Source: Schmidtea nova
Taxonomy: Eukaryota
Assembly: GCA_044892505.1 (NCBI GenBank)
Contig: CM097883.1
Span: 419,492,001 to 419,556,000 of the forward strand
Reading direction: 5' to 3'
DNA length: 64,000 nucleotides
Positions 3,691 through 61,166 of this stretch are shown in pieces (the stretch's first letter is position 1; each line of letters starts with the position of its first letter). The translations under genes were made by a program, and so were the position numbers. The notes beneath the pieces are model-generated. The model saw only the letters and a program-made list of their open reading frames with translations. It did not search any database and was not told the DNA's origin.

Positions 3691-3744
3691 AGTCTACAGT
3701 TATCTCTAGTAGCAGACCGGAAAAAGCGCGGAATAAACCTGTGA

Positions 3745-4162: not shown

Positions 4163-4525
4163 TCTCCAATTAATAAATAAAAACATTAATTGAAATTTAT
4201 CTTTATGTTGTGCCTTGACATTAATTTTCGATATTTTATCATTCTACAAATTTTGTATTGAAGCAGATTATATGTAATTTTGATTTAGGAAATATGTTTA
4301 AATGTCGCTATTAAATAACTCTGTACAAATTTTTTATTATTATTGGTTGATAAAAAAAGTTTACTTTATAAAAGTATTTATGATATTTTTTTATATATTT
4401 TTCGAGGTTGTTTAAATAATCAGAGATTTTGGTAAATTATCTTTTGGATTTGAAAATATTATTTTGTAATTGTGCTCTGTTTTTAATATATATTGTGAAG
4501 TTGCAATTTACAATTATTATCGATA

Positions 4526-4747
4526 ATGAATGAATTTGCTGAATATTTGAATTATAATGGTGGCGTATCTGTTGGTCATTATCAAAATATTCTCAATTAT
4601 TTACAAGAGCCAAGAAATTACGAGACAAAACTTTGCTTTTTGAATATTCTTAAGATCACGAACAGGAACATAATTAAAAAAATGGAAGCTTGTGGTTTGA
4701 CTGACATTTTATCGAGATGGTTTCAAAACTCCTTTATTAGAAAATGA
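4526..4747 (+). pseudogene. 5' fragment resembling the PNUTS/PPP1R10 N-terminal TFIIS-like domain, inside the Gypsy element
   Basis: LNYNGGV...YLQEPR...FLNILKIT...GLTDILSRWF aligns by eye with the recalled PNUTS LNRDGEV...LMKEAR...YLNILLQT...GGYKLLNNWL. Confidence 0.55.
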
Positions 4748-4844
4748 TTTAAATTTTATTCAATCGTTATTGAAAGTCTTCGTTTTCACTCCATCAATGT
4801 TTGTGTTATCTAATAATCAAATCAATTCGTGGTATAAAACCACC

Positions 4845-7800: not shown

Positions 7801-8356
7801 TTCCGAATACTGTAAAATATTAGGAATTAGGAAGACTTTTACCTCACCATACTACTCACAGAGTGATGGGCTGGTAGAGCGACTATTTGGAACTGCAAAA
7901 AGTGTGATTGCAGCGGTGTTAGAAGAGAAGAAGAGCAAAGACTGGAGTGTAGTATTACCGGTAATAGAGTTCGGATTAAGAACTACAATACAAAAATCAA
8001 CGAATTATTCACCATATGAAATAGTATTTGGAAACCAAGCAAGATTACCCATATCAGCAATAAAGGTTAATACAAGACATTTTCAAGACTATGACGATTA
8101 CGTCCAACAGCTGCAACTAAATTTATCAGATATGCAGAAGAAAGTAAGAGAAAATATGGATAGACAAAGAGAGTGTATCGCCGTAAGATATAATCAGAAT
8201 CGATGGCACAAAGACTTGATAGTAGGAGATAAGATAATAATAAAGAATGAAAACAGAAGGGGTTTCGAGAAGAAGTATATAGGGCCATTCATAATAGAAG
8301 AAATAATGGATAAATGGACCTATGAATTATTTAGTGACAAAGTTAAAAAAGAATAA
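4845..8356 (+). pseudogene. pol (protease, RT, RNase H, integrase), multiply frameshifted
   Basis: MFDTGADLNVIS; RMCVDYRALN, MPFGL, YLDDVLIF; YCITRKELLA, RTDHQSL; IHSDSG, QSDGLVER, YSPYEIVFG, KYIGPF. Confidence 0.95.
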
Positions 8357-15624: not shown

Positions 15625-16455
15625 TCAATTCCAAAAATGTGTATGATATTGGACAACAAATGAACCCTTTTCATAATAATAATTTCTACACAATTTTCTT
15701 TCAGTTGAATTCATCCGATTTAAGTCCTTGCAAAATGAGGGAGTGTCAATTTTTTCAGAATAATCAAAAGGGTTGAAAAACAAACTCGGATAGATCGTCG
15801 TTCGCTTATTATTATGGAACTTTTTCATAAACGTTGCAAGCATTTTAGTTAACATGATAGGACCTGTCATTTCTTCGGGTGTGAGCTTTCTGTGGGAGTT
15901 CTTCATTATGTTCTGTATTACATCTAACCAAAATGGATCTCCTTTTTTTGAATAAAATAGAGAATTCTCTACATACAAAACTTTGTTACCCATCGTTCCA
16001 AATGCTAATGAAGAATTGTCTAACAGATGCTCAAATGGCCGCAAACAATCTGCATCCAAATCTGCATAAATGCCGCCAAAATGATGCATGTAGAAATATC
16101 TTATTGAATCAGCCCGATAAATTGGTCTTCGAAACTCATCATAGGTTTGTAAAAACCAAGGATAATAATTTTTGATGAGATCCCTGTTACCTTCGTCTGT
16201 CCAAAGAATATATTTCCAATTCGGAAAACATTTTCTCCACGATTTCGAGTATTGTGAGAAAAAACTTGGCAAATTCGAATTTTTCCAAGATTGATGGATT
16301 ACCCTAATAACCCCTTCGGGTTGTTGTAAAAGTTTCTGACAAATATTTCTTACGCTGATTTGTCGGATTACGAAAATATATGATAAGATTAAAATAATAC
16401 AAAAAATTCGCGATTTTGATAAAATCTTCATTGGAATTATTCCTTTCAAAGTCAT
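15625..16455 (-). CDS. GT32 (DXD, SUR1/CSH1/OCH1-like) glycosyltransferase, type II membrane, copy 1
   Basis: Intact intronless ORF from ATG 16455 (MTLKG..., 276 aa) with an N-terminal TM. Motifs IHQSWK, YILWTD, RADSIRYFYMHHFGGIYADLD, EMTGP and terminal YHTHFW. Confidence 0.9.
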   Translation of the reverse strand: MTLKGIIPMKILSKSRIFCIILILSYIFVIRQISVRNICQKLLQQPEGVIRVIHQSWKNSNLPSFFSQYSKSWRKCFPNWKYILWTDEGNRDLIKNYYPWFLQTYDEFRRPIYRADSIRYFYMHHFGGIYADLDADCLRPFEHLLDNSSLAFGTMGNKVLYVENSLFYSKKGDPFWLDVIQNIMKNSHRKLTPEEMTGPIMLTKMLATFMKKFHNNKRTTIYPSLFFNPFDYSEKIDTPSFCKDLNRMNSTERKLCRNYYYEKGSFVVQYHTHFWN

Positions 16456-19400
16456 TGCAATTGAGAAAGTTGTGGAACACAATAGTATGTCCAACTTAGG
16501 TTGATCTTTAATTTCAACAGACTGTCCAAAAAAATTTAATGTGCTAGAATATTACAGATAAAATACAATAAGAAAATAAAAATAAAATAATAATGCAAAA
16601 TATTATTGAAAAACAATATTAAAATGTAAATATTTCAATAAACATCAACGGACATTTGATAAAAGCCTTAATGGCATTATATCGAATCTTCATTTACCCC
16701 TGTTTTCATACAATAAGTCATACATAAGTCTCTATAATACATGCAGTTGTTTACACCTACTTGTGAGTCATCAATGTTATTTTCATTTATGAAAATTTAG
16801 TCATTTTTAAAATTTAATTTATAAAGATATCTTTTAGGGCTTATATTTTTATGAGATTTGTATTTTTAATCTCATAATGATATGAGATCATTATAAAAGC
16901 TTTTGTTGGTAACATTAGCAGGATCTAATTCTATGGTGACCAAAATAACTGTTGTATTTACCAGTAGTTACCCGTCGCAAGCAACGTTGGTAATGTAACT
17001 ATTGGGCAAAACTACTCGCAAAAAGTGAGCACTGTTACCAGAATTATAATTAATAGAGTAATTTCTATGGGTCCAAGCGCTATATACATAGAAGATATGT
17101 GCTCATTTTTGATATTCGGTTCTTTTTCTTTCACAAAAATGCTTTAGCTTTTTAATGTTCGTTCGCAAATCTTATTTTAACTTCCTACTGCTCATACTAT
17201 TGTTTTTATCCGAGAAACTATGAAAATATATTTGATTAATCGAACACAGATTTAATATGTTAATAATCACGAAATCATTTGTAGCACTATACGATAAATA
17301 TCAATCAGGATGAGCAAAGCAAAAAAAATTTGAACAACGATGCTCTTCCTCTGTTCTATTTCTCAGTTGTAGAGAGTTGTCTTTCTTCTAAAATTAATTA
17401 TTCTCAAAATTTCCAAAAAAACACATTGTTTTTCGTGAAATTTTATCAAATTCTCAAATAAGTGCTAAAACTACTGAAAAAGGCACTGCTATATTTTTCA
17501 TTTCAGAGCATTTAATTTAATTGATTCAGTAAAAAAACAAATGCTTTTAGAACGTTTTTTTTATTTTATTTTCTTTAAAAGTTGAATATTTTATTTTTAC
17601 TAAAATAAATTTATATTTATGAATAAAATTTTATTCATTACTTTAATAAATTTTATTTTTACCAAATTTTATATTTTACATAAATTTTAACCGCTTTTAA
17701 TTTTAATTTTTACTATTTACTTTTACATTGTTTTACATTTATACTATTAAAATTAATATAATTAATTTTTAAAATTTCTGAATTGTTATATTTTCTTAAT
17801 TCTTTTATGAGTTTTTTGTTAATTTGTTTTGTCTGTGTTTATTCGTGTTCACTTCTTGCTTTTGTTCATAAATAAATTTTACTTTTGTTTTAATTAATTT
17901 TGTTCTGTGTTTCTAATTATATTTGTTTACTTTGTGTTTGCTCAGATATTTGAGTTTACTTCTTGCGTGGTCGCTATATGCTGTGTCCACGCGGACTTTC
18001 AAATTAATGGGATTCAGTTTTTGCATAACACTGAAAGATTACCTATATTTTATTTTAATTTTAATTTTAATAACTTTGTCAAAAATAATTTACATTAAAA
18101 ATAAGTCAAATTCATTTTTAATTAAGATTTGTCGCTGAATTATTGTGTTTGGATATTCCAAGAAATCTTGGAAGGTGGAAGAAATTTTTACTCTTTTACT
18201 TTATTATTTTTACTTGGTCAATTTCTGAAATTTCATCAAAGTATGATATTTTCAACATTTAAATTTTTTAAAATTTATAACTTTTGAGTTTCAAGTTTTA
18301 TTTTCCATTTCAAACATTGCAAAATTTTATTGTCCTACGTTATCTGAGACTTCAGAAATATCCGAATTGCTATGTAAATATGTAAGATTTTTCATAAAGT
18401 GAAATAATTTGACAAAATTATTTTTCGGAAATTTGAATAAATTTTACGGTGCCATTTCATTATTTTCTCGATAACTCCCCTAGGAAATATTCCAAATGTT
18501 TACTCACAACATGTGCTTTATAAACAAATAAAATTATTATAGAACTTTTAATAATGTAAAAGATGTCGAGTTTTAAAATTCGTAGGTATTGTTAATTGTG
18601 TTGTGTTTATGTGTATTATTTATTTTTTCTGTCACTTTGTCTATGACATATAAAAACTTTTTCCTATGAAAAACCAAAATTTAATACCCACGTAAGTTTT
18701 CATTTCCTATTGATAATTTTTAACATTTATTATAGAAACTCTTATTGTATAAAAAAAGGTGTATAAATAAAAAAACCAGCTTATAAAAATGTATGTGTAT
18801 CCAATCCAAAACTGGCATTAATTTGGAGTTTATAAAATATGGATGTAAATAAAAAATTAATTCATGTAATGAAAGTCAATATTTGTCTTAAAAAAGTGAC
18901 CTTTAACCTTTTTAACATAAAAGATTTTCACATGAAACAGTTTCTGACAAAACCTCATAGATACTCAAACAGGATCGGAGTATGTTTTGATTGCAAATAA
19001 ACATTTAATGTGTCATACGATAACTAAACTTTTCTCCTTTTTTAGATATTATCACAGAATAATTCGCTATTAATTTATTGTGATAACATAATCGCTATGC
19101 CAACATTGATCTCTCTAGAATAAAACTAATGATCCTATTTTATGACTGAAATAGAGAAATCCTCATAGCTTTGGTGCCTCTAAGCTTTCGCTTTCAAAGT
19201 CCTGCCACATTGAATCATTTCCTAAGCCGACCCTGGAAGTATTTTTTCGAAAGCAAAGAACTTATTTACAATACGCAAAACCAGATGTCTTTTATTGGTA
19301 AATTTGACTACTTTAGAGAAATAAGGATTCCAAAGCCTTGGTGTTCCGAACCAGTGCCATATCGGCTCTCCCTTAAACTGGTGATCGGATATTTTCAATT

Positions 19401-19820
19401 ACTTTATTTTTGAAAATTTCAAGACTAGATCCATAACTTTGTGCAGAAAAGAAAATATGCTCTTTTTTAGTTTTGACCGACTCGAAAATGTTCAAAGAGA
19501 AGCCAAAATTCGGTCTGAGTTGTAATTTATTCAAAGTGACTAAATACAAAAATCTTAGTGACAATAATTGCATTGAAAACCTTGAAATCTATTTGTATAG
19601 TTTTGAACTTCCTTGTCTCTAGCCGGCGTAGAGCCGTAGAATTCGGCAGTTTAATAAGTCAATCATAAACAAACTTAATTAAACAATAAAAGTTTCATTT
19701 TATTTATAACTGCTATTTATAATGCCAGACGTGAAACTAGTTAATTCCTGTTTGTCGGGTAAGACCTACTTCGACCGCTACTTTTTATTAATTCTTTCGC
19801 GGCCTCTCTAAAACTTATTT

Positions 19821-21296
19821 ATGCAGCAGGATCAAATTATCATTCCGTCAAATAGAAATGCCTTTATCAAATTTATGATTTCAATAAAGCTCCTAATTAT
19901 TAGCATTGTATTTTTGACAAACTACAGTTTCTTTATCCTCAAGATCACCCCTCTCGATGGTCGATGCAGCGGGATCCCGGAAATAATCACAAGTGCCATG
20001 GTGATTGTAAAGATGACAAATATCGTGTTGATTATTTACAACGCGAGAATCAATTACAGGTTCAGAAATTTGAGGATCCGAAATCCCGTTGAACGGCCGA
20101 TAATTCTGTATTTGATTTGCTTGCCACTATTGGTGATTTCGATGATCTGTATTTCTATGAGTGTTCTTCATACAACCTTTTCTTCATACAACTCCGGTCT
20201 GGACAAGTCCGTTGATTGTGGGTTCTCAATCATAAATCTAATGGCGGTCCTTTTGTTCATTCTTGATATGAGTGGATGCAGGAACACTGGAGAGGAATGG
20301 TTGATGAGTTATATGAATTTTTTGATTATCATAATCACGATTTGTACGATGTCAATGGAAGCGTTGAAAACCCTTTCTAGTAAAATGTCGAGAACTTATT
20401 CACATTTAATTTACAAATATTTCAATATCTCTCTAATTGAACAGAGCAAATCTTTTTTTTCACCATCTATAATCCATACAGTTTATGTTATTGAAGAAGA
20501 CTCAGTCATAATGCTTCTCTTGGCTCTCTTTCCTTATCTGATTGTTTGTTTGGATCAACATATGAAAAATATGCAGAAAAGTATATCAAAAGAAAACGTT
20601 CCACAAGCACTTTATGTAAGAAACCCAACCTTTCTTTCTAAATCCGGACCTATCACTGTCATTGTATTTACTGGTTATGAACTTATCTTGATAATCTATG
20701 GTAAACTGATCCACAATTGGGGCGACGAGGTATGGATTTATAGAGGAGTAGACGGCTTGAAATTTATATTTATAATGATAAACATTCTATTAATGTTCCA
20801 TGAAGTGCGTCCTTGGTTCAGTGTCGAAGAAAATAGGTTTTATGATTTGAGAAAACTTTTCATCTATTTCGGAACATTTGGGAACATAACCAAAGCGGCC
20901 GTCTTTATTTTGTTTAATGTTTATCAAATTTTTACGAAAGACGTTTTTCAACATTCATCGTTGTCATCAAATTGTTCCTTCATTGTAATGTATGCCGAAG
21001 ATATTTTACAAACTATTTTCATGAGCTCTATGATCTTGTTGATCCTCGAAAGGAAACCGAAACCATTTCAGAAAAATTCCTGGAGTTATAAATTTTGTAC
21101 ACCAATTTTGTTGCTGATGAATAGAATTAATGAAATAATTCGATGTAGTCTCTATCTGCTTATTGAAAGGGGACAATATCTTGAGGTCAACCTCATTCTG
21201 CTTGGGAGTTATTCTTTTATCCAACCAATCGTATTGTTCTATAATGTCACTTGCGTCATTATTCTCGCATCAACAATATGCTCAATGGCCAATTGA
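19821..21296 (+). CDS. Intronless polytopic membrane protein, probably divergent otopetrin-family proton channel
   Basis: Intact 491-aa ORF with about 11-12 hydrophobic segments in two halves. C-terminal FIQPIVLFYNVTC resembles otopetrin PxxIFYRxHS, and ILQTIF resembles QxxxQxxFI. Confidence 0.5.
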   Translation: MQQDQIIIPSNRNAFIKFMISIKLLIISIVFLTNYSFFILKITPLDGRCSGIPEIITSAMVIVKMTNIVLIIYNARINYRFRNLRIRNPVERPIILYLICLPLLVISMICISMSVLHTTFSSYNSGLDKSVDCGFSIINLMAVLLFILDMSGCRNTGEEWLMSYMNFLIIIITICTMSMEALKTLSSKMSRTYSHLIYKYFNISLIEQSKSFFSPSIIHTVYVIEEDSVIMLLLALFPYLIVCLDQHMKNMQKSISKENVPQALYVRNPTFLSKSGPITVIVFTGYELILIIYGKLIHNWGDEVWIYRGVDGLKFIFIMINILLMFHEVRPWFSVEENRFYDLRKLFIYFGTFGNITKAAVFILFNVYQIFTKDVFQHSSLSSNCSFIVMYAEDILQTIFMSSMILLILERKPKPFQKNSWSYKFCTPILLLMNRINEIIRCSLYLLIERGQYLEVNLILLGSYSFIQPIVLFYNVTCVIILASTICSMAN

Positions 21297-21719: not shown

Positions 21720-24700
21720 CAGCGGCGTATTTACCTGTAGGCAGATTAGGCATTTGCCTAGGGCCTCGGATTTATAAGGGCCTCCAAAATACAAAAAAAA
21801 ATTATAATTTTTTTTTTAAAAAAAAACAATATTCGTAGCATTTTACATTTTAAACTTTAACAGTTTTAAAATTGTCAGAGTTTAAAACCTTTTGGAGCCT
21901 CAATTTCAATTTACAAAATAAAATTAGTAGGCCTTTACAAAATAAAATATATGATATACAAAATATTGATTGGATGTTGCTTTTTTCCTTTTTGAATATG
22001 TTCAAATTCTTTTACTTATAAGAATTTATAAGAAAAAATAACAAATAGGATAAAAGCAACATCCAAGCAAGGTTTGAATTTTTATATTTTGAATATAATA
22101 TATTTTATTTTGTAAAGGCCTACTAATTTTATTTTATAAATTGAATTTGAGGCCCCACAAATAGGTTTTAAACTCTGAAAAATTAAAAAGAAAAATAATA
22201 AAATTATTTAAAAAAAAAAACAATAGTCGTAGCATTTCATATGCAATTTCATTTCATTTATTGTTTGAATTTTGTTACGTTAACATCAAATTTTCGTTGC
22301 ATGATTTTGAATATTGAAAATAAATATTTGTACGTATTGATTATTAGCATAATTTTGATTTTAGATTGATATTTTCCGAATAACCAACAGTTTTTTTAAA
22401 ACTACCAAAACCAATCGTTGTTGCTTCTTGCTTTCGTCATTTAATATTTCATAATTCACTCGACAACTATTCCATTTTATTTTTAAAAAAAAATATTGAC
22501 AAATATACGTTAAAATGAAAAGAACTTTCGAGTCTGGCGCACAAAAACGATTGCGAAAAAAAATTCAATTGAAGGAAAACGAAAAGCAAAGAAACTCCCT
22601 TGCTAAATTTATGTCTTTGGATAAAAATGTTCCATCTACCAGTACTGCGGCTGCAGATAAAACTGTTTCACTACCAGTAATAGCTGATAGCGATGTTAAT
22701 CTTTCGATAAGCAGTCTTTGTGCAGAAGTAGGTGCAAGTGATAATTGCGTTGCCACTACCAATGACATTGAGGTTGAAATTGAGAGTGAAGTAGTAAGTA
22801 CAAATACTTATCCTATCTTTACTGACATTGGTTTATGGCCAAAAATAATTACTAATGATGTGATTGAACATTGTATCTGTACAAAACCCAAAAATGTGGG
22901 AGATTTAGAGTCTTCTAAAAAATGGTATAAAGATAACAATGATCAACAAATATACCGAAAATTAAATGATGTACATTTTTATACGACTAAAATAAACGGA
23001 GTCCAAGAGCTTAGAGAATGGTTGATTTATTCTGAAACAACGAAATCTGTTTATTGCTTTGCTTGTAAACTATTTAGTAAAAAATCTAATGTTCTAGTTT
23101 CAGGATATTCAGATTGGAAAAATATTGTAGACGTTTTGAAAAGACATGATGAGTCGAAAGAACATAAAAGTTGTATGTGTGCTTATGTTCGTCGTGCTAA
23201 AATAAGTGGTCGCATCGATTCCAAACTTTTACAGGTAATAGAAAAAGAGTCAATTTATTGGCGAGAGGTATTAAAACGAGTCGTTGCTACAGTTAAACTT
23301 TTGGGAAGTTTGGGTTTAGGGTTCAGAGGACATGATAATTCTTCCAAAGGCAATTTTTTCAGCTGTATTGAATATTTGACTGAATTTGATGACTTCTTAA
23401 AGGTTCACTTAGAAAAATACAGTAATTGCGGAAGTGGGCATGTTAATTATTTATCTAAAAGCACGTGTGATGAATTTATAGAACTTATGGGCAAAACCGT
23501 ACAAAAATCCATTGTTGATGAAATAAACCAAGCTAACTATTTTGTTCTTATAGTTGATTCCACGCCTGATGCAAGCCATACTGACCAGTTAACTATTATT
23601 ATCAGGTACGTAGATCTGGATCAAAAAATTCAAGAAAGGTTCATATGTTTTATTTCGATTGAACATCATGATGCAACATATTTAGAAAAAACTATTTTGT
23701 CCGCCTTGTCAGAATTAGGGTTGAACATTAATAATTGCCGGGGACAAACGTATGATAATGCTGCGAACATGTCAGGCATTTATAACGGTCTCCAAGCCAA
23801 AATTAAATGTTACAGCAAAAATGCTGAATTTGTACCTTGCGCAGGACATTCTTTAAATGTAGTTGGAAATACAGCAGCAGAATGTTCTTCTAAAGCTATT
23901 AGATTCTTTGATTTTATTCAAAATTTGTTTGTTTTTTTTTCCTCTTCGACAAAGAGATGGGATCAGCTAATGAATACTGATCAAAAATTAAGCCATAGTT
24001 TAAAACGTATATGCGACCCTCAATGGTCATCTAGAGCTGAAGCTGTATTAACTGTAAGAATGAATTTTTCTTCCATAAAAACTGTTCTTGGTGAAATTTG
24101 TATTAACCCATCTGAAAAACCCATAGCAAAAATTGAGGCGAAAAAATTACATAGCAGTTTTGAAGATTTAGAGACGGCTCTGTTATTGATTTTTTGGAAT
24201 ACGCTATTGCAAAGAATCAATGCCACCAATAAGTCGTTACAAAGCAAAGAATGTAACTTACAAAAAGGAACATATTTATTGAAATCTTTATCAGAATTCA
24301 TACTTAGTATTCGAACTAATGATGCATATTTTCACCAAATGGAAAAAGAAGCAATCGAATTATCTGGTAGTACAGAATACTCAACAGCAAAAAAATCGAA
24401 ACAGGAAAAGAAAAATACTATTCGATGAAACTTCTGATAATGACACAATTTTATGTGGGAAAGAACTTTTCAAAGTTGAAACATTTTACTCAATTTGTGA
24501 TACTTTAAACTCTGAAATAAAAAGAAGGTCTGTAGTTTATGACAAGGTATTAGAAAAGTTTCTAATATTTGTTGATTTAGATTTGCCTGAAGAAAAATTT
24601 GCTCAGTGTGTATCAAATTTAGCTGAACACTATAAAGATGACATAAATCAATTAGTATTCAAAGATGAGGTTGAACAGTTCCTTCATTTTGTAAAATTGG

Positions 24701-25131
24701 AAAAATTATTAACACTTCCTGAAATGTATGCATCAATTCTGGAAGGTTTATCATCAACATTTCCAAACGTTGAAATAATCCTAAATTTTTTTTAACAATC
24801 CCAATTGCAAATGCGTCTGGTGAGAGATCATTTAGCATTTTTAAGCGGGTCAAAAACTACCTAAGGACGTCACTTGGCCAAAAAAAACTAAATCACTTAG
24901 CTATCATGGCAATTGAAAGCGATCTAGTCGAAAAAATTAACTATGACTCCTTAATTGATAATTTTGCAAATAATAAATCACGAAAAAAAATATTATAAAT
25001 GGGCTTTCTTTGGTCAAAATTTAGAAACTAAGCCATGAAAAAAAAAATATTTATTATTTAAAAAAAAATCTTAGAGGGGCCACAATAATTGATTTTTGCC
25101 TAGGGCCTCAATTTGTTAAAATCCGCCTCTG
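21720..25131 (+). mobile_element. Full-length hAT transposon (ZMYM1-like/Tip100-Blackjack type)
   Basis: TIRs CAGCGGCGTATTT / AAATCCGCCTCTG, perfect 8-bp TSD TGTATAGG (21712-21719 / 25132-25139) and subterminal TTGCCTAGGGCCTC at both ends. Confidence 0.97.
22515..24998 (+). pseudogene. hAT transposase (TTF zinc finger, DUF4371, DDE, dimerisation domain) with two frameshifts
   Basis: YCFACKLF, FRGHD, VDSTPD, TYDNAANMSG, CAGHSLN, SGERSFS, LAIMAIE. Shifts near 24390 and 24790 fall in homopolymer runs. Confidence 0.92.
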
Positions 25132-31775: not shown

Positions 31776-32606
31776 TCAATTCCAAAAATGTGTATGATAT
31801 TGGACAACAAATGAACCCTTTTCATAATAATAATTTCTACACATTTTTCTTTCAGTTGAGTTCATCCGATTAAAATCCTTGCAAAATGAGGGAGTGTCAA
31901 TTTTTTCAGAATAATCAAAAGGGTTGAAAAACAAACTCGGATAGATCGTCGTTCGGTTTTCATTATGGAACTTTTTCATAAACGTTTCAAGCATTTTAGT
32001 TAACATGATAGGACCTGTCATTTCTTCGGGTGTGAGCTTTCTGTGGGAGTTCTTCATTATGTTCTGTATTACATCTAACCAAAATGGATCTCCTTTTTTT
32101 GAATAAAATAGAGAATTCTCTACATACAAAACTTTGTTACCCATCGTTCCAAATGCTAATGAAGAATTGTCTAACAGATGCTCAAATGGCCGCAAACAAT
32201 CTGCATCCAAATCTGCATAAATGCCGCCAAAATGATGCATGTAGAAATATCTTATTGAATCAGCCCGATAAATTGGTCTTCGAAACTCATCATAGGTTTG
32301 TAAAAACCAAGGATAATAATTTTTGATGAGATCCCTGTTACCTTCGTCTGTCCAAAGAATATATTTCCAATTCGGAAAACATTTTCTCCACGATTTCGAG
32401 TATTGTGAGAAAAAACTTGGCAAATTCGAATTTTTCCAAGATTGATGGATTACCCTAACAACCCCTTCGGGTTGTTGTAAAAGTTTCTGACAAATATTTC
32501 TTACGCTGATTTGTCGGATTACGAAAATACATAATAAGATTAAAATAAAACAAAAAATTCGTGATTTTGATAAAATTTTCTTAGGAATTATTCCTTTCAA
32601 AGTCAT
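31776..32606 (-). CDS. GT32 (DXD) glycosyltransferase, copy 2
   Basis: Intact 276-aa ORF from ATG 32606, nearly identical to copy 1. Confidence 0.9.
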   Translation of the reverse strand: MTLKGIIPKKILSKSRIFCFILILLCIFVIRQISVRNICQKLLQQPEGVVRVIHQSWKNSNLPSFFSQYSKSWRKCFPNWKYILWTDEGNRDLIKNYYPWFLQTYDEFRRPIYRADSIRYFYMHHFGGIYADLDADCLRPFEHLLDNSSLAFGTMGNKVLYVENSLFYSKKGDPFWLDVIQNIMKNSHRKLTPEEMTGPIMLTKMLETFMKKFHNENRTTIYPSLFFNPFDYSEKIDTPSFCKDFNRMNSTERKMCRNYYYEKGSFVVQYHTHFWN

Positions 32607-35049
32607 TCGATTGTAACTCAAGAAATGCCTTTTTTAATTAATATTTGTTGATTAAAACAAACAATTATGTTGAATAATAAATGAATAATAAATATTCCTA
32701 ATTGGTAATCGAACCAATTAGTTGAACAAAACAAATAAATCACACTTTTTCCCGTAAACGTTTTAAGTGAAATCGAGTTTCAATTTTACGAAATAATTTT
32801 TCAGTTATTTATTTCATGGCTTATTTTAGACTTTACCATTGGAAACCTCAGAAATTCTGTTATCTGTTATTTTGATACTTTCCTTAAACGCAAGTCAACA
32901 TTTTAGTCATTTACATTCTGCATTCTTGTCATCAAAAAAATATTTTTTTGAATAAATATAAAAATTAAAAACAAACGCCAATCCAAAATTATATTCCGCA
33001 CAATAAATTTCAATAAAACCCTTCTCATCATCAGTTACTTTTCCGATAAGCATTTCGATATAAATCAAATAAACAAATTGATTTTAAACAAATTTGTGCT
33101 GTTTACAGTAAGTAGAAGTGAGCCTAATATGACTCATCTTTTTTCAAAAAATTTCTATGTCAGATATTAGTCACGTGATGAGTCATAATGTAGGTCAGGA
33201 TCATTTAAACAAAGATATATGTTACTATTTACAGACCATATAATATTGTGAGCCCACGATGATTCATCATTTTTTCAAAGTTTTTCTGAGTCAAAGACCC
33301 CTTCCCTACAGCTTAAACAGAAGGTAGTATGAAAAATATCTTTAATGTTTCGAAATCAGAAAATAATTCTTAGACTTTTAACTGAGAATATAATTTTTCA
33401 TAAGGTCGTTGTTTTAGCCGAAAATAGACCTTGAAGTGTTTGGTAATCATGCATTAGTATTGCACTAATCAAAACAAGATACAATAATACATTTATTTAA
33501 ACTAGAAAATAATTCAAAATAAATATTGGAAATTTAAATATTGATGATTTATTTGCAGAGTTTTGATCAAACTTTGACTGAAGATTCCCATTTCGATTTC
33601 TAACTTCATTCATTATTAGATTGAGCTGATCGTATAAGTTTGGTGTTATAAATTTGTCGAACTATTGAACATGATTATTTAATTTTTTATTGTTTTTTCT
33701 TACTTCAATCAATATAAGTTTCAAATCATTTTTGATTGTAGTAAGGGTTTGGTTGAATAATTGCATATTTTTATATAATTTCACACGAATTATTCATTCT
33801 TTTTGGTAGTCTCCCTGTAGAAGCCTTCAGTCATCTAGGTCTATCTGCTAAATCCAAAATATGTAAAAGCACAATCGTATTAGGGTCAACACACCTTGCT
33901 TTATTTTGTCCTTGAGTTTGAGTGTTTATGTGTGGTTACATATCCGTGTATATAGGTGTGTGCTTTAATAAATAACAATTAACTATTAATAATAAACAAA
34001 TAAACAGTACAACGTTTATTTAACTAAAGATACACCTGGTTTCTTAGTTTAAAAGTAACAATGATACAAGTAGGTGTGTACATCTGCTTGTTACTTATAG
34101 TTACTTTGTTGAATTTTTTATTTATTCATTTAGCAATTTTTTAAAAATGGCTATCTAGTAAGTTTATTTATTAAGATATCTTTTAATGCTTCTATTTTTA
34201 TTTTACAATGAAATAACTTTTTCATTCTTTTGCTTGCTTTATATACCCAAATTTCGTTTATTGAAATAAAACATTTTTTAAGTGTCTATTTATTTCTTCT
34301 GTTGTCAGGTTTCAGCAGTCAGTAATTTACGCACGGGGAGATATAGATGAAATTATTGATAATTCAGCTGTTTCGTAGGTCAAATTAATTGGTTATATTT
34401 CTTACAGAAATAATTCAATCTAAAAAAATAAAATAACACTACAATGTTAGTTATATAATGATATAAGAAGTAATTGATAATAGTCACAATATTAAAGTTA
34501 GTTAAATCACATAATTGTCAACATAATCATATAGGGTTTGATTGCATTGAATTTCAAATTGGAGACTTATTGGATTGATTGGGGAACCATTGGTGAAACT
34601 CTGTGATATTGGTTGGTTTGGATTGATTGATTGGGGTTTGATTGGATGTTGTTGTGGATTTTGAATTAGATCGATTGAGAGTGATCTTTTATTTATGACG
34701 GGGCTCTTCCTTTTCTGGGTATATGTTTACCTTGTAATTATTGGGCCCTGTCCCATAATATTTCGAGAGGATGAATGTATCGATGTGTCTACCCTCATCA
34801 TCTAACACTTGTGTAATTGATAATTTTTGAAGTTTTGTTGTAATTTCGAATAAATATCTGAATTTTGAATTTATTTTATGCTCGGTCTTAAATGATTCTC
34901 CGATCAAATTGATTTAGGAGGGGCTTTGTCAGCTCACCGGCCACGAATTCATGATTCATTGAAGAAATCAGACCGAAGAGTCGGAACGGGTTCTCAGACC
35001 ATCGTTTTTTAAATTATAAAGATTGGCTAGCGTAAAAGAGAATTAGGGG

Positions 35050-36800
35050 TGTTATTGGAAAGTGAACCAGGAGGAATAGAAGAGCTGTTATTCAGATATT
35101 TTTGAAAATAGATAGGTGTAGATGTTATATATCATAAAGTGATGTTATAAAAAGTGTTGGGGTAATGGATTGGGTGTTGAGAAATTCTACTAGGGGTAAT
35201 GTCGTGACGCATATCATATCGCTAAATCCCTTTCAATAACCACTTCATAAAATTAATGACTACTTATTGAGCATGTACCGTGATAGTGACTTGTCGTCAG
35301 TTGGTAATGTACATCTTGGGCGTATAATAAGTGGCAGGTGAGTTCTTATGTTAGAAATACAGCCACTTACAATACTTTTAAGGATTCTATAGGCGATAGA
35401 ATACTTTAATCCATTATCAATCCCTTCAGGTTACTAATTTAGGCTTAATTGATGACATTACTGTCAGGTAAAGATATTCAATGATTACCTATCTTGTATA
35501 ATGGTGATATAGCCGCATTACCTACTAATGATCTTGGTTCTGTTCCATTATTTAATAATTAATGCAGGTAACATAAACCTTATTTCTCCCTGAGCATTAC
35601 TGGGAATTCTAGTGTGCAATTTTTAGATTTAGCCACTTCAACTTCTTCTGCTACACATTGGTAACTATAGATTGCTTCCCTCATGATCCTGCCAAATGTA
35701 CCCTGCTCGGTTAACATAGGCATAACTAGATCTGGATTTACTATTGAAATTTCTAATCGATTTCTAATTATTTCACGGTTCAATCGGCAATCATTCAGGA
35801 TCACCTCTTGATACTTGTCTTGCATATTTTTCTGTAGATTATGATACAGAAAATCCAATTTATTATTAATGTAATTTGTTATTTTTATATCTGTTTTTTG
35901 CAGTTTTTCTGTCCCTGGGAAATATATTTATCTGCTATAAATATTCCCTGATAATTTGTCTTGTGTACCGTCACACCACATTTGATTTTCAGGTCTTTCA
36001 TTACCAGTCTAATTGCGTCTGTTACCTCCTTGGATACAAATACTAATGCAGTACTTTTTTCATGAATTTCCTCCCTTACTAATTATTTGAATTTTAGTCC
36101 ACCCCATACTTCTCCTTTATTTTTATTAATTGATAACCTTGTTCCGTTTTGTTTCTGGAATAATATTTTCATTTGGTATACTAACTCACAATAATCTTTC
36201 ATTATCTGATATATTAAGGTAGCGGACAAAGTTCTACAGAACCAACGCTTAATATTGCATTCAAGATGCAAAGTACTAATACGTAATCTTCCACTTTCAC
36301 CACATGATTTATCAGGTTTCCCCCCCCCTCACCTTGGTACATCCAAATCATGAACCATCATCATCGATTGTTTCTCGTCGAGTGATAGTTATCGCTAGGG
36401 CCTTCCCTACTTCGGTCGTAATAGTTACTTCGTCATCTATTTTAAGTGTTCCGGTTCGAAAAACATTTTCACAATCGTCTGGTAGTATGGCCATAGGTAC
36501 TAGTTTTGTTCCTAAGAACGCCGTAAAGCTGTGTCTCCCACACCAATATTCGAACGTTGTCTTTTGCTATCTACATTCTCTGACAGTAGTTCTGTAAAAA
36601 TCAGTCTCCTGATATACATGATACGAGACCTCTTCTCCTAACATCACCTTATCCGGATATGCTTCCTTGCATTCCACTGTATCAACTAATGAGTATATCC
36701 TACTCAAACTTAGATTGATGAAATCATATACTATTTTAGAATTCGTCGGACATAACATCCCTTTAGTTACTAGAAACATTACTAGTAATTTTAGGAAACT
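35050..36800 (-). pseudogene. Chuvirus-like (class III, gB-related) envelope glycoprotein
   Basis: Signal FLKLLVMFLVTKG; YSLVDTVEC; ECR*QKTTFEYWCGRHSF...DDCENVFRTG; LIYQ; DFLY...NDCRLNREII; AIYSYQCVAEEV...NCTLEFPV. This is the recalled chuviral G cysteine pattern. Confidence 0.85.
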
Positions 36801-37570
36801 GCCTCCTCCTATTCGATTATTTGGTACCAATGGATTAGTTGGCATATCCTCAGCTATCTCATATCGAATGGACTTCTCTCTTTTTTGTCCCAAAATATAA
36901 TTACTTCTAAACATTGTTCGAAATTTGTTTCGATGATTTTCCCAATTTGTTCTATTTCTAATTCGATTGACGTTTGATTATTGCACATTGATTTTACAAT
37001 ATTCTGTATCATCATTGTCAATATGGTTATCATCTTTCCTCTAAAGTCCATTTAATAGAAATTCGTTAACTATATAGTAAATATATGGTTTTCTATGGTT
37101 GTAGGGATCTTTCCCATTGCTACTCTTATCTCTTGAACAAATGAATTCACTTTAATAGTGTCATTTTTCACAATTTGCCATTCTGACTTAATTATTCTCA
37201 ATATTTGTCTCAGATACTTTTTCGTTTTAGTTTCTTCTTTTGTTTCATCATCGAACTGTTTGGCAATGTCTGCTAAAGCTTGGCTTGTTTTACTCTACAC
37301 CATTTTCAGATCTAACTGATCCCTCGGAGGCGATTTCATCATACTTTCTTAGGCCTTACTCTGCCATCTTTTTTATGTTTGGTTTCCTTAACTGTTTGTT
37401 CCGGAGCTACGGGCGCATTTTGTTGTATGATTGTGTTACCTTGTCCCCCAATTTTCTCTGGGGTTCTTACTTTTTCTGTGAAATTCTTCAGCCCAATCTT
37501 CCAAGATTCCATCCAACTGGTCTTGGTCAATATCCGCATTAACTACTTCTTCTAGTCTGGGCACTACTGG

Positions 37571-38440
37571 TTACTTCACCTGTGGGCAAGGAAGTTCCTC
37601 GACTCCTCCCTCATCAGGCAATCTGAGTACTGACCACTGTGATATAGGTGGCTCTATTGGTAATATTGTTATTATAGTGGTATTCCTTGGTGGACATCCT
37701 ACATCTACTAAAGATTCGTCATCATCCACTTGACAACCATGTATAGTGATTAAAAATAAATAATCGATGATTTTCTTTAATCCTTTCATCAAGTTTCTAA
37801 CTTGATGGAAGCATGAATATCTCTGTAACAACTTTTCTTGTCCAGGAATTCTAATATCGAGCTTCACTGGGCCTTGTCTCTCCTCTTGGTGCCTAATGGC
37901 ATGTTCGTATTTCATGATTAACATCCTTATTTTTGTCTGGTAAGGTGTTACTTCTCTCATAACTGATATGAGTAATGGTACTAATTCACATAAGGTTTCT
38001 AGTGGTATGCGTAACATGAGCATCCAGTCCATTATATTTTTAATATTTTCCCCGTTTCTCATGGTTTTTGTCAATTCATATGCCAGTCTTTGTTGGATTT
38101 ATTTAGCTTGATCTAACTGCTCAAGCTCAATTTCGCTGATTACAAATATATTTCTTAGGTCCATTGGATGTACCTTTACCATTGGTGAACACGCTTTAAC
38201 TAGATTGAGCCTATTAGGCAACAATCCGCTTTTTAATATTGTCTCATTGTCTTTTGACTTGACATCTTAATAATATAACCCTCGTGCTTTGACGTGTGTA
38301 CTCTCATTTATCTCTTTTATTAATTGCTCTACTCTTTCATTAGGGTCTATTTTAAATATGTACAAGTGTCCCCTTGGATCAACCACATGTATCTTGATAA
38401 TCTCGTTTGCCCATCGAAAACTTTGTAATTCACCAATGTT
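37571..38440 (-). pseudogene. Accessory ORF with two ubiquitin-like domains (~38398-38195 and ~37870-37665)
   Basis: One frame with 2 stops: IKIHVVDPRGHLYIFKIDPNERVEQLIKEINESTHVKARGLYY*DVKSKDNETILKSGLLPNRLNLV ... VKLDIRIPGQEKLL...QVRNLMKGLKK...LITIHGCQVDDDESLVDVG...TIITIL. Confidence 0.55.
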
Positions 38441-38889
38441 TTTCAATAATTTGAAATTATACTCTTAATATTTCTCTATCTCTTGAATTTTAGATACAGT
38501 TTTGTTAACTCTGGTATCTCTTCTACTCGACTCTCAGACTCTACTACTTTTAATAAATACTCGTCTAGTTCTCGCTGGTGCTCTTTCTCTGAGTCAGCCA
38601 GCATTAAACATGGGTCTATGGGATGATCCTCATAACCCCATTTCGACCTCTCCTCGAGTGTCTCATTGGACTTAACAGTCACTTCTCCACTGCTGCGTCA
38701 AGATACCTCATAGCTGGAATAGACACAGGGTTCATTTTCCGCCTTTTCTCTACAACCTTCTTTCTCCAAAGCTATGGGACTGCTGGCCTCAGATTCACTG
38801 AACCTAGCCTGTTGATTTCTTTGGGTGAAAGTCACATAAGCCCTTCCGTTCTCCTCGTTAGTGAAGCTCGAAATTCGATTAATCTCCTA

Positions 38890-39680
38890 TTGAATTTCTA
38901 ATTCAAGTTGTTGCAAATAGGTTAAATTTTGATTTACAGCAAATGACGTCTGCATTGGATTCTCAACATTATTACGATCATTATTATTTACTATCTGAGT
39001 TTGCTTACATGACCTCGGAATATGACCAAATTTTCCGCAGCTGCAACATTTGATTTCCCCCACAAATTAACTTCGTCTCTTTTTATATTATTATTATTAT
39101 TATTATAAATTGGATAGTTACGATTATTACTATTATTATTATATTGAAAATTAGTGCTTGGACTTTTATTCCTACTTCTATCATTATTTTTACCCTCGTT
39201 ATTATTTTTATTATTATTATTATTATTATTATTACGCTGGTTATTATTGTTACCCCTAATCGTCGGGTTTTACATACTAAAGCCACGTACCCCCTACACT
39301 CACATCTATCGCAGCTTAAGTCCGAACATTTGCAATTTGGTGCATCATAGGGAATTTACTTAATTTACATAATTTACCCCTGGGGAATTGTTTCTCCAAT
39401 TCGCTCTACAGTCCTTAACCACATTCCCCTTTCTACGACAATTGTAACACTCTACTTCATTAACTACAAAATTGCTAACCTTCTCTATATTGCTTTCTAT
39501 TAAAACTGCTTTCCTAGTTAACTCCTCAAAATTATCACCTATATGTAAGTTAAGTAAGTTTCTCATATTTGTACTTAGCCCTAACCAAAATTGGTTCTTA
39601 ATCAGTGCTTTAGTGGCATCATTCCACTCTGCTCTAGCTCCAAATGCTCTCTCAGCTAATAAATTTACTTGGTTTAGCTA
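38890..39680 (-). pseudogene. gag C-terminal half with CCHC knuckles and Asn-rich microsatellite
   Basis: ECYNCRRKGNVVKDC, CECRGYVALVC, KCCSCGKFGHIPRSC. Confidence 0.8.
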
Positions 39681-39879
39681 CTGAAATAAAACAAAATAAA
39701 ACTAGAAAATAATTGAACATTTATTCGATTCAATAGTGGTTGCTTCTTTGAATAATTGTGCTTCAGAAATTGATGTTTATGTTTAATGGATTTTCTTTTC
39801 TTGCTTGATATTCAGTTTCCTAAAAGAGAGCCGTTTTTCGTGATTTTAAACAAAAACTTTTTTATAATTCTTTATATAT

Positions 39880-40928
39880 GCTGACAATGAGAATTCAAGC
39901 AATTCCACAAACAGAAGAGGCCAGTATAAGCGAATAGCAGAGGAAACTAGATCAAGAATCATACATTCTCATCAGAGTGGTAACTCAGTAAAAGTAATTG
40001 CGGAATATGAAATGCTGAGTGTTTCAACTGTTAGAAATATCGTGAATAAATTTATTGGGGCGGGAAGAGTAGCATCTCTGCCGCGGGGAGGCAGTAAAAA
40101 CGTTAAAATCAATGATGAAATGAAATCATTTATTTTGGGTCTTGTTGATAATGATTGTTCAATCTCACTGAGGCATATCCAAGGAAAACTGCAGGAAAAT
40201 TATGACATAAAAATTGCAATATCAACCATATTCTATTGCCTGAAAAATCTTCATTATACACTTAAAAAACTAACTCCGATACCAACAAGACGTAATGACG
40301 CTAGATCGATTGAATTGCGAAGGGTCTACGCTGCAAGATATTTGGAAATTGAAGAGTCTTATGCCGGAGAAGATATTTTTTCTTAGACGAAGTTGTATTC
40401 AATGTATCTATGAGATGCAAGAAGGGACGCTCAATCGTTGGAAGTCCAGCAAATTTAATCGTTCCGAATATTCGTTCTAAAAATTTATCTGTGTGCAGTG
40501 TTATGACCAAGAATGGCTTGGTGTTTTGGAAGTTGAGCCACGTACCATACAACACCGCTTCTTTTGTTGGATATGTCGATGAATTCGCTGACTATATCGT
40601 CGATCGCAATGTTATGAATTGTGTACTGGTGATGGACAATGTGGCGTTTCATAAGAGCGCACGAATAATGGAATTGACCTCTAAGTGGAACATTCGAGTT
40701 GAATTCCTCCCGCCTTATTCACCTTTCCTGAACCCAATCGAGAATTTATTCTCGAAATGGAAAGATTTTGTAAGACGATCTAAGCCAATGAATGAAGAAG
40801 AACTGATGGTAGCAATGAATGATGGATTGAGAACCTTGAGCCAAACTGATTGTGAATATGAAAAAATATATAAGAATATGAAAAAATATATTCGTTTATC
40901 AATACAGGGACTTGAAATTGTGGATTAA
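39880..40928 (+). mobile_element. IS630/Tc1-like DD34E transposase (one frameshift at ~40380)
   Basis: HTH region (STVRNIVNKF...PRGG), then FLDE...MDNVAFHK...FLPPYSPFLNPIE, with 34 residues between D and E. Confidence 0.9.
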
Positions 40929-41774: not shown

Positions 41775-44222
41775 TGTTATAGTTGATTGTTGATTGTTTA
41801 AAGAATAAAAATAGAGGTGTTTTTTTAAATAAATTATGTTGCACTCAATGCTAGAAAGAATATTGTTTAAGGGAGCTGTCGTTTACCTAGACAATGTATT
41901 GATTTATGGAAAAGACAGAAAAGAAAATAATTTACGGCTAGAGGAAGTTTTCAAAAGGATACAAATAGCAGGGTTGAAGGTTAATCCTGGTAAATGCGAT
42001 ATTTCTAAAAAAGAACTGACATTTCTGGGACACGCTGTTAGTTCCAAGGGGATAAAGACGAATGACAAGAAGATCAAAGAAATTAAAAATGCAGAGATAC
42101 CGACATGCGCTAAACAATTGAGGTTGTTCCTTGGTATGACTAACTACTACAGGAAGTTCATAAAAGATTACGCAAAGATTGCTGAACCGTTGTACGTTGC
42201 AACTTCTGGATGCGGGAAAATGATTAATTGGTCAGAAGATTGCAATAAAAGTTTTGAATTGCTTAAAACAAAATTATGTGAAGTCCCTATCCTGGATTAT
42301 CCAAGAGTAGAGGACAAATTTATTCTGGACACAGATGCCAGTTTTGGAGCTATTGGAGCAGTTCTGTGTCAAGAAAGAGGAGACCATACAGAGGTGGTTA
42401 TTGCGTCTGGATCAAGACATTTACCGGCACACGAAAAAGGGTATTGTGTGACAAGGAAGGAATTGCTTGCAATACACGAATATGTTTTATATTTCAAACA
42501 ATATCTATTTGGGAAGGCTTTTGTAGTGCGAACAGATCACAAAGCACTAGTCTTCATGAGATAAACCAAGAAAGCAATAAGCCCACAGTTTCAGACATGG
42601 CTAGCCGACCTTTCCGGATATGACTTCGACTTGCAATATAGGACAGGAGAAGAACATGGGAATGCAGACGGTATCTCAAAGATCAAGGGAATGTTATGTG
42701 CTCAATGCCAGACACAACATGAAGACGCGAAAGAGGATAAAATAGAGTGAGACATATTATTATATTACAGAAGACTGAATCAATGACAAGACTATTAAGC
42801 AAACAAGAGGATGACGTAGACTTCATACACATGTCAAGGATATTACTGGGAAAAGAGAATGGAGAAAATCTGAACAAGAAGAAATTCCCTTTTAATTTGC
42901 TGAAGAACACAAAATTCGAAAACGGATTATTACTGCTTGAGAAAGACGGAAAGGATGTAATATTAGTACCATTTGACTACACTAATATATAAGTCAAAGA
43001 TATACATAGAGAAATGTGATATATTGGAGTGAAGAAATTAAAACGTTAAATGAGCGATTTATTTTTTTGGCCGAATATTCATGGAACAATTCAAAGCTGT
43101 TTAAGATCATGTGAAATATGTTGTAAACGGAAGATAGTACAAGAGAAAACAAAGGAACGACTGATACCGATAATGAGTTCAGATTTCTTAGAACAACTGG
43201 TTGTAGATAAGGCCCACATGAAACCTCAAGGAAGTTACAGATATTTATTAGTTATTATTAACCGTTAAATCAAGATGGTTAGTCTAACTGCACTGGAAAG
43301 ACAAGATGAGAAATCGTTGTTCAAAGCCTTATTAGAGAAGTGGATATATAGATTCGGTAAACCACGAAGTCTTTTTATCAGACAAAGGTAAGAATTTCGA
43401 CAGCATGTTCGTGAAGACACATCTAGGAAAGTTAGGCATCGAACAAGACCTGAGCTCACCATACCAACACCAATCGAATGGGCTGGTGGAAAGAACTATA
43501 CGGACAGTCAGAGACTTATTAACCACTTCTATATTCAGTGGATTAAGGGACAGAAATTGGGTAGATTTACTCCCACGTATAGAATTTTGTATCAATGCGA
43601 CAACGCAGAGTACAACGGGATTCTCACCATTCGAAATTGTTTTCGGGAGGAAAATTAATCTACATTCACGTTAATCTACTACCACAAACAAATTTGAACT
43701 CAACCGAAATACGCAAGCAGGTTCTAGCAAACAGTGAAAGGGCAGCAAAAAGAATGAAAGAAACAGAGGCGGATAGAAGGACGCATAGAACTTTTGAGGT
43801 AGGGGAGAAAGTATTGGTTCGGAAAGAACCACAAGATCGGGACAAAGATGGCCTTCAGTACGATGGGCCGTTCGTAATATCAAGATTTTTGTCAGAACAC
43901 CAAGTGGAGTTTATCGATGGAGATTCAAAGAAACTTCGACGTATCGAATGGATGAAGAGATGGGCAGATCCTTAAAGAAAGGGGGAGTTATATAAATTGT
44001 TGATTGTTTAAAGAATCAAAAGAGAGGTGTTTTTTAAAAAAAATTATTATCTTGCAATTTGTATTTTTTATGAATTCAGAAGGAGACATAACTGTGATAT
44101 TTATTCTTTACTTTCTTATTCGTTGCTGTTCTCTATAATAAAAGATTTTCTATAGAGAATTTTCATTTGTTATTTCGTTTTCTTTGGAGTTCAGAAAAAC
44201 ATGAAAATTAACGAATATTACA
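41775..44222 (+). mobile_element. Internally deleted Ty3/Gypsy element (RT C-term, RNase H, integrase, 3' LTR ~43986-44222)
   Basis: YLDNVLIYG, LDTDAS, YCVTRKELLA, QSNGLVER, YDGPF; PPT AAAGAAAGGGGG. A ~60-bp copy of the LTR start at 41775-41835 is fused directly to RT. Confidence 0.9.
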
Positions 44223-60302: not shown

Positions 60303-61166
60303 TTATAATTTAATTGTTTTTGGGTCATGACAAACTGCCCCGTGATCCAGTTGAATTTGACACATGAATCGCAACGGCGCAATCAATCCTTCATAGCTTT
60401 CTAAGTTGAAATGATTCTCTTCTTCTAAGAATAGCAGAGCTCTCCCAACCGCTTCAACAGTACTGACGCACTTGCTATTTGGCTGAGTACGAATTACAAA
60501 TTCGCTTTGCCTCTGAAACACTTCATCTGTTGACGATGCCGAAATAACAACCTTCTGTATATCATGCAGCCATTTATTCCTCAGATAAATGCCTTTAGCC
60601 TGTGACCAGGTTCCGTCTAGAATTATCAAATTGTGTAGTTTTATATTAATTTTATCTATTGGAATTGCGTCTTTAGATGGATATAATACTGCAACAGAGT
60701 CAGTGTTTATACTATTGATTAATTCTGGATATCTTACAAATGTTAAGGCAAAAACCATGACAAATATTACTTGGAAGCACTGAAATTTCGACCTTTCAAC
60801 ACTTGTACTTTATCACTATCAATAGCTAATTGTAATATTATAGCTGTTTGGATTTTTCGGCTTTCCTATTAATATATTTTAAGCATATTAAATGTGTTTA
60901 TTAGAGAATATTTAATTTGATAGGCAAATTAAAATTTACAATACCTCAAATGGATGCTGTAAAATAGTTATTTTTGTTTTGATATTTAGTTTACTTTTAG
61001 GTAAATGGGCACACCAACACACTTTAATAGGTCTTCTAAAATTATTTTTAAGAGATATTTGCTTTAAAAATATGACATACTTGCATTGGATACATGATAC
61101 TCTTTTATGGTTAATTTTGCTCTCTAATGGTTCATCTATTAAATCGACAAATTCGAAATCCTGCAT
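60303..61166 (-). CDS. DTWD2: tRNA-uridine aminocarboxypropyltransferase, DTW domain protein 2
   Basis: Exons 61166-61081, 61035-60945, 60865-60771 and 60732-60303 (introns 45, 79, 38 nt, phases consistent). Motifs CIQCKRPIKVCWC, ILQHPFE, LYPS, LIILDGTWSQAK, IRTQP, VSTVEA. Confidence 0.92.

Follow-up and report, generated by a model that had tools for sequence, protein, structure and literature searches.

Parts and decay of the minus-strand element

The window, a 64,000-nucleotide stretch of contig CM097883.1 (GCA_044892505.1) of Schmidtea nova, carries on its minus strand a degraded coding region of ~4.2 kb that runs from ~39,680 to ~35,445. Read 5´ to 3´, it comprises a Gag remnant, three zinc-knuckle sites, a linker, two ubiquitin-like domains (UBLs), a Bcl-2-like domain and a gB-type envelope glycoprotein (Env) in three frame pieces. 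The region is very probably a decayed, truncated fragment of a Burro-like, env-bearing Ty3/gypsy long terminal repeat (LTR) retrotransposon of the Gag-Env-Pol lineage, with its 5´ and 3´ parts lost. Its recognizable parts are listed below (HMM, hidden Markov model; iE, independent E-value; P and L numbers denote relatives described in the next section).

39408..39680, minus: C-terminal part of the Gag capsid with the first zinc-knuckle site (gag HMM; blastp to the gag of P0052, E 0.004)
39,449-39,408, minus: zinc-knuckle site 1, without the histidine ligand (motif scan)
39272..39313, minus: zinc-knuckle site 2, in another frame and without the histidine ligand (Cx2Cx4.x4C scan)
39070..39270, minus: Asn-rich, low-complexity nucleocapsid spacer (translation; N/G/R-rich spacers at the equivalent place in P0008 and P0013)
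39007..39048, minus: zinc knuckle 3, the sole complete CCHC (motif scan; gag HMM iE 9e-4)
38450..39000, minus: linker or coil region containing the word GRAYVTF at 38,847-38,827 (no protease motif or HMM match)
38192..38452, minus: ubiquitin-like domain 1, the more decayed, with one in-frame stop (leave-out HMMs, iE 1e-3; Pfam UBL_UBAC1, E 0.048)
37880..38098, minus: four-helix bundle ahead of the second UBL (AlphaFold2 helices 2-70; alignment with L002, P0008 and P0012)
37652..37876, minus: ubiquitin-like domain 2, an intact beta-grasp fold without a C-terminal diglycine at its end (structure and profile matches)
36881..37243, minus: Bcl-2-like domain, degraded, with two mid-domain in-frame stops (homology to relatives)
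36333..36800, minus: signal-peptide-like hydrophobic stretch and N-terminal ectodomain of Env, with two in-frame stops (PF24664, E 1.6e-7; env HMM positions 4-156, iE 8e-32)
35891..36259, minus: middle part of Env, in another frame (env HMM positions 196-319, iE 8.5e-20; no Pfam match)
35445..35909, minus: C-terminal part of the Env ectodomain (PF24664, E 4.3e-17; herpesvirus gB PF00606, E 0.022; env HMM positions 314-472)

The coding origin of the region is still visible in the distribution of stops. Between 36,899 and 38,452 (~518 codons) the best frame has 10, against 61 and 38 in the other two, and in a second stretch of 179 codons the favoured frame has 2, against 20 and 15. At least seven frame changes and 20 in-frame stops fall in the frames read from 39,000 downward, and the fragment is inactive today as a protein-coding unit. 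The stop that an earlier note, made from the letters of the sequence, had taken for the end of gag is one of these many lesions.

An HMM of the gag regions of six relatives matches 39,668-39,195 (iE 3.7e-5) and 39,075-39,001 (iE 9e-4); the N-terminal part of Gag is absent from the fragment. The CCHC gag reported in the earlier note thus stands as a gag remnant, with three knuckle sites rather than one and a single complete CCHC among them, the third (Pfam zf-CCHC_6, E 0.018, below cut-off). The GRAYVTF word had been suggested to be a protease stump. It receives no score from the protease HMM, and in six of the nine relatives examined gag is followed by a comparable [RK]..V.F word, so this suggestion falls. 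The word at 38,827-38,847 is RVxF-like, a motif of the PP1-docking type; its information content is low and it may be a chance occurrence. The motifs D[TS]G[AS] and YxDD are both absent from 34,000-39,900, and the protease HMM has no match there, while it does pick up the protease of another element in the window, at 4,851-5,102.

The proposal of tandem ubiquitin-like domains is confirmed. A UBL HMM built without the window sequence matches both 38,098-37,664 (iE 1.6e-17) and 38,446-38,192 (iE 1.3e-3). The open reading frame (ORF) at 38,098-37,571, open for 175 codons, is predicted to fold into four helices and a beta-grasp domain (AlphaFold2, pLDDT 80), the best VIA match being a SUMO1 fusion (Z 12.1, rmsd 1.5, 73 residues aligned). 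All 50 VIA rows align on the UBL part and the helical part is scarcely tested by them. Ubiquitin-like domain 2 reaches a Foldseek E of 2.4e-4, the UBL profile finds ISG15 (E 7e-7) and ubiquilin-2 (E 9e-5) in the PDB, and Atlas gives weak leads of ubiquitin type for the ORF, all under 0.9. The four-helix bundle precedes the UBL in all relatives possessing the region. Its HMM has no second match and none before ubiquitin-like domain 1, and the L002 copy has no usable Atlas match; a likeness to TFIIS N-terminal domains gained no support from Pfam. Only one UBL is found in each of the five relatives that have the whole region (P0008, P0012, P0019, P0052 and L002), so that the duplication marks this copy or the subfamily to which it belongs. 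A word-seeded homology search with the middle region retained none of 6896 candidates, and Pfam matches to Imm9, Pup and Ku_N in that region (E 0.001-0.08) are below cut-off and were treated as noise.

The earlier note described the ~2 kb between gag and glycoprotein as devoid of protease, reverse transcriptase (RT) and integrase motifs. No protease or RT motif was found there, but the interval is not featureless: it holds the Bcl-2-like domain at 37,243-36,881. This domain aligns with P0018 (33% over 101 aa, blastp E 1e-11), is matched by a leave-out HMM of five relatives (iE 1.1e-6) and, with a profile lacking P0018, has a score reached by none of 1000 shuffles and an hhalign probability of 89%. 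The BH2 glycine pair is missing both here and in P0018. In four relatives the pre-env domain has weak Pfam Bcl-2 matches (E 0.001-0.055). A model of the L002 domain (pLDDT 76, 10-row alignment) has only cellular and viral Bcl-2-fold chains in its first 35 VIA rows, the best with Z 13.3, rmsd 2.8 and 134 residues aligned and the first other row at Z 5.2; all Foldseek rows among the matches listed belong to the Bcl-2 family, none reaching E 0.001. The predicted fold is shared with the viral Bcl-2 proteins of herpesviruses, poxviruses, African swine fever virus and iridoviruses (Z 12.2 to A179L of African swine fever virus, Z 11.6 to KsBcl-2), and its BFVD matches are viral Bcl-2s (E 0.008-0.5). 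Unlike these, the domain is here part of a retroelement polyprotein and comes ahead of the signal peptide of env; sequence identity is 8-19%. The top PDB sequence match of the profile, a designed coiled coil (8qad, E 5.6e-5), was rejected as compositional; the next are Bcl-xL chains, in the BH2 region only (E 4e-4). Scoring of 8000 proteins with the profile found only three, all already among the collected relatives.

For the glycoprotein, a profile of 630 positions was built from nine relatives. Two of the three frame pieces match PF24664, Monjiviricetes_fusion in Pfam, and the C-terminal one also matches gB weakly, in line with the similarity to chuviral G and gB expected in the earlier note. 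About 40 profile positions ahead of the middle part are unmatched, and contigs of other copies vary in length at 36,262-36,349. Homology stops near 35,445, at profile position 472 of 630, with no membrane anchor and no pol beyond it; the glycoprotein is thus real, and its extension to 35,030 in the earlier note is not. A word-seeded search with a 115-aa env piece retained none of 46 candidates.

Relatives and the position of pol

The env region was used in a phmmer search that gave 253 proteins with E<=0.001, the best 150 of which were taken (P numbers) and 22 of these, the top and the long ones, scanned with Pfam. In the FastTree env tree (90 of 154 aligned rows kept, at >=75% coverage plus the window and P0018; 430 columns; midpoint root) the window env falls in a clade with P0012, L001, P0009, P0008, P0007, P0010, P0018, P0015, L002 and P0011 (SH-like 0.993). 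The named chuvirus glycoproteins P0034, P0063 and P0070 belong to the second main group. The window env is 33-35% identical to the env of full-length elements vs 20-22% to two measured chuvirus G. It thus groups with retroelement envs and does not nest among chuviral G, which speaks against a recent chuviral capture; the tree was rooted at its midpoint and hence says nothing about the direction of capture. The nearest named errantivirus is Platyhelminthes_Rhabditophora_Smed_errantivirus_4 of Schmidtea mediterranea. Two ungapped blocks with 100 positions in total share 70 residues with it; the first block, of 48 positions, shares 35 with Smed_errantivirus_4 and 20 with Smed_errantivirus_1 (all counted by eye). 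This resemblance of the env suggests a host of planarian type.

The relatives also show where pol is to be expected. The best seven phmmer matches (E<1e-30) are 748-2855 aa long, and in five of them a protease follows env. In 10 of the 22 scanned proteins the env ORF continues into protease and/or RT, and in none does pol lie between gag and env; one, P0144 from thrips, has integrase before env. In Anakin elements, too, env comes after pol. A metagenome scan added at least three loci (L001, L002 and L003); scans of viral contigs returned no related locus. Within a single ORF, L001 has the order UBL, Bcl-2, env, protease (PR), RT, RNase H (RH) and integrase (IN), with three proteases, and pol also follows env in the same polyprotein in P0010, P0012 and P0157. 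L002 reads gag, CCHC, helix/UBL, Bcl-2 and env before the contig end cuts it, L003 has gag, env and pol and no accessory cassette, and P0052 has the part order of the window in one ORF (gag-CCHC-helix/UBL-Bcl2-env). The cassette varies in content, with UBL only in P0008 and P0012, UBL and Bcl-2 in L001, L002, P0052 and P0019, and neither in L003. Gag and glycoprotein occur together in P0008, P0052, L002, L003 and P0029, as the earlier note had asked of other copies. Since pol follows env in this lineage, its absence from the gag-env interval is how these elements are normally built. The copy in the window ends inside env, upstream of the place of pol, and pol was therefore most likely lost by truncation; a "Pol-less" lineage, as had been proposed, is not supported.

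Several relatives have features of their own. The L001 polyprotein (3426 aa) has two further membrane proteins by prediction, the first between proteases and the second after integrase, and a separate ORF 3´ of it (L001:10617-12107, plus strand) encodes a DEDDh/RNase T exonuclease domain (PF00929, E 1.4e-5). In L002 a lone in-frame TGA (L002:3058-3060) separates the gag-UBL-Bcl2 ORF from env; it is a simple lesion or else allows readthrough, which would then determine how much Env is made relative to Gag. Aspartic protease arrays, C2H2 fingers and ankyrin repeats are found among P0157, P0008 and P0010. P0157 has ankyrin repeats and seven protease stretches, and its length of 4844 aa is near that of the 4,873-aa Burro1 ORF1. 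The Gag-Env-Pol protein P0012 was deposited as a hypothetical protein of a Flavobacteriaceae metagenome-assembled genome and is probably animal DNA binned into a bacterial genome.

Among published systems, the closest are the giant planarian gypsy LTR elements Burro and GYPSM1 (Grohme et al. 2018 and Jurka 2007, as reviewed in PMC6431247). Burro has gag, two to three CCHC knuckles, a Ubi2/SUMO-like domain before BCL-2, env between BCL2 and protease, and PR-RT-RH-IN, its env having matches to mononegavirus fusion glycoproteins (PMC6431247). Compared by this published description, the window fragment shares three knuckle sites, a Ubi2/SUMO-like domain and a BCL-2-like domain directly before env, all in one direction. 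It differs in having two UBLs where Burro has one, and as a ~4.2 kb fragment without pol, LTRs, BIR, ankyrin or dUTPase. The last three domains, like the long LTRs of the more than 25 kb Burro elements, would be situated in the lost part. The same review describes decaying Burro fragments with stops and frameshifts in Dugesia japonica and a Dugesia tigrina polyprotein without MATH_TRAF_C. The domain order is thus published for planarian Burro, and the novelty implied in the earlier note does not hold, although an env-bearing LTR-type retroelement in a non-arthropod host is what we find.

Gag-Env-Pol errantiviruses with a HSV/gB-type env are described from Platyhelminthes, Nematoda and Bryozoa (PMC13524379), and the window shares with them a gB-type env after gag (PF24664 and weak PF00606). 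These elements are intact, multicopy and equipped with pol, whereas the window copy is truncated and decayed, with no Ty3/gypsy pol after env. The available portions of that paper's text and seven supplements contain no mention of Bcl or ubiquitin. The same broad glycoprotein family, PF24664, is also found within an LTR element in Anakin, the mosquito BEL/Pao elements with a chuviral glycoprotein (PMC7642597), and in host genomes as Jingchuvirales glycoprotein endogenous viral elements (EVEs; PMC10084718). These belong to another host group, and in the tree the clade of the window env is separate from the named chuvirus G; the env-after-pol order is the one seen in P0144. Lacking pol, the window copy is classed as a relic of the Burro-like lineage and not as an intact Burro or errantivirus.

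Other copies, neighbouring elements and rival explanations

The stretch is contained in four sequencing runs of one study, which supply the contig evidence. Zero-difference contigs cross the env break (34,812-35,490 in X1, similarly in X2 and X3; three runs, two samples), so the break is present in the DNA, although these contigs may be the assembly's own source. Other contigs are 85-89% identical to the window on 37,752-38,263, 38,102-38,569 and 36,464-36,885, and summed depth is 210-1113 vs ~60 on unique contigs (X1), depth not being equal to copy number. Diverged contigs over the UBL and env regions together with the raised depth indicate that diverged sister copies exist. Among the contigs listed, none links env to pol and none shows the same env break in another copy.

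Two features border the fragment.

34550..35340, strand not assigned: sequence beyond the env break, partly repetitive (depth peak, 36 contigs at 34,754)
39868..40928, plus: Tc1/IS630-type transposase, flanking and outside the element (HTH_SB, E 1.9e-7; DDE_3, E 2.9e-24)

The former has no Pfam match at E<0.05 in six frames and none to the tails of the relatives; it may come from the 3´ portion of the element or represent a different repeat. It does not match the post-integrase membrane protein of the relatives and was rejected as a remnant of that protein. The transposase sits where one would expect the 5´ LTR and the first part of gag, and no terminal inverted repeats were found for it. No LTR pair or long direct repeat was found around the element in the window, which is expected because both of its ends are lost.

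The window has other pol fragments, at 41.8-44.0 kb and 4.7-8.4 kb, but these were ruled out as the missing pol: they are on the opposite strand and upstream, and ~40% identical to the relatives. The plus-strand fragment at 41.8-44.0 kb is 38-43% identical to the RT/RH of six relatives, four of which are 60-74% alike mutually, and its summed depth is 20-50 times higher, which also argues against it as the pol of this element. It is a gypsy RT-RH-IN fragment (window 41,776-44,047, plus) between direct repeats of 52-62 nt that are 89-92% alike; contigs skip 42,697-43,977 within this very high-depth sequence, and it is a deletion derivative of another family, short and present in high copy. At 2,688-8,356 (plus) lies a second gypsy element, also decayed, with the order gag-PR-RT-IN.

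Elsewhere in the window are a hAT-like transposase (DUF4371; 22,500-24,795, plus), a DTW-domain gene (60,303-60,809, minus) and a 494-codon intronless ORF for a multi-pass membrane protein (19,812-21,296, plus) with no Pfam match at E<0.1. Two near-identical intronless DXD glycosyltransferase genes (15,625-16,551 and 31,776-32,633, both minus; PF04488, E 6.6e-18 for the second; 97% alike over 300 nt) are a recent duplication.

The diverged sister copies raise the question of a non-autonomous internal-deletion family, in which a gag-UBL-Bcl2-partial-env unit would be copied as such with Pol from a full-length partner. LTR lineages commonly give rise to such derivatives, Troyka (PMC12440569) being an example, and the organism does hold several diverged copies of both the middle and the env parts. 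However, no LTR pair or long direct repeat flanks the element, an env without anchor and a gag without N-terminus would not give working products, no contig of another copy among those listed bridges the same env break, and the frame changes and stops counted above point to a single old fossil. We consider this explanation unlikely; of the two options in the earlier note, a non-autonomous element or a deletion derivative of a large one, the second is the likely one. It is also distinctly unlikely that the fragment represents a multicopy pol-free satellite of a Burro-like element, one that keeps Gag, a duplicated UBL module and a Bcl-2 fold acting against apoptosis, and that depends on an enveloped helper for its mobilisation in trans. 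If true, such a family would be a defective-interfering retroelement with host-control domains.

Could a piece of gag, a ubiquitin-like gene of the host and an EVE derived from a chuvirus glycoprotein simply have come to lie side by side by chance? Frameshifts separate them in the window, and the Pfam family of the glycoprotein is defined on negative-strand RNA viruses. Yet the same parts stand in the same order in single ORFs of the independent relatives P0008, P0052, P0019, L001 and L002, and the window env is closer to the envs of full-length elements than to the two named chuvirus G, by the identities given above. The collinear relatives refute chance juxtaposition, which we regard as hardly credible. 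Domestication of a host-useful remnant, such as the 175-codon UBL ORF under selection, is very unlikely. That ORF is open and is predicted to fold well, but at ~2 stops per 100 codons in its frame (10 in 518) 175 open codons are unremarkable, and both of its same-frame neighbours carry stops.

Some observations weigh against a truncated Burro-like element. The window contains no pol or LTR of the element's family, and we infer the pol of the sister copies. Three contigs of other copies join 34,996 to 35,089; some of the sequence beyond the break is therefore shared with other genomic places, and a deletion common to the whole family could account for this as well. The Bcl-2-like domain of the window has no Pfam Bcl-2 match, its score is weak (iE 0.0066) once P0018 is also left out, and the fold was modelled on the relative L002, to which the window copy is tied by sequence only. 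Finally, a MATH domain, as in Burro's MATH_TRAF_C, gave no Pfam match before the UBLs of the fragment, in a degraded region.

Proposed origin and significance

Judged from its relatives, the parent of the truncated Burro-like fragment would have encoded one long polyprotein with Gag and knuckles, a helix/UBL and Bcl-2 cassette, a signal peptide and env, proteases, RT, RNase H and integrase. Its env would be a class III, gB-type fusion glycoprotein, followed by at least one aspartic protease, and the element's own proteases would cut the polyprotein into its parts. From their folds, Env would allow entry into new cells, the Bcl-2 domain would most likely act as viral Bcl-2 proteins do and damp apoptosis or immune signalling of the host, and the UBL would serve for docking to the ubiquitin/proteasome system and not as a conjugated tag. 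The copy in the window would then have lost its 5´ end where the Tc1-type transposon now sits and everything past the end of the env ectodomain, including pol, and gathered stops and frameshifts afterwards.

In conclusion, the fragment itself matters little, being one more fossil of a described lineage. What is new appears to be two small additions, predicted-structure support for the Bcl-2 fold, obtained in the relative L002, and two UBLs where five relatives have one. By the former, the Bcl-2-like motif of Burro, earlier known from sequence profiles, gains predicted-structure support. For genome scans the layout is a caution, as a gap in place of pol between gag and env should not be taken for a defect in this lineage. 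A possible interference of such elements with apoptosis and ubiquitination in the host is raised as a question in PMC6431247. Several Gag-Env-Pol elements of far smaller size than Burro1 share the helix/UBL and Bcl-2 cassette, and these offer compact natural constructs for that question.

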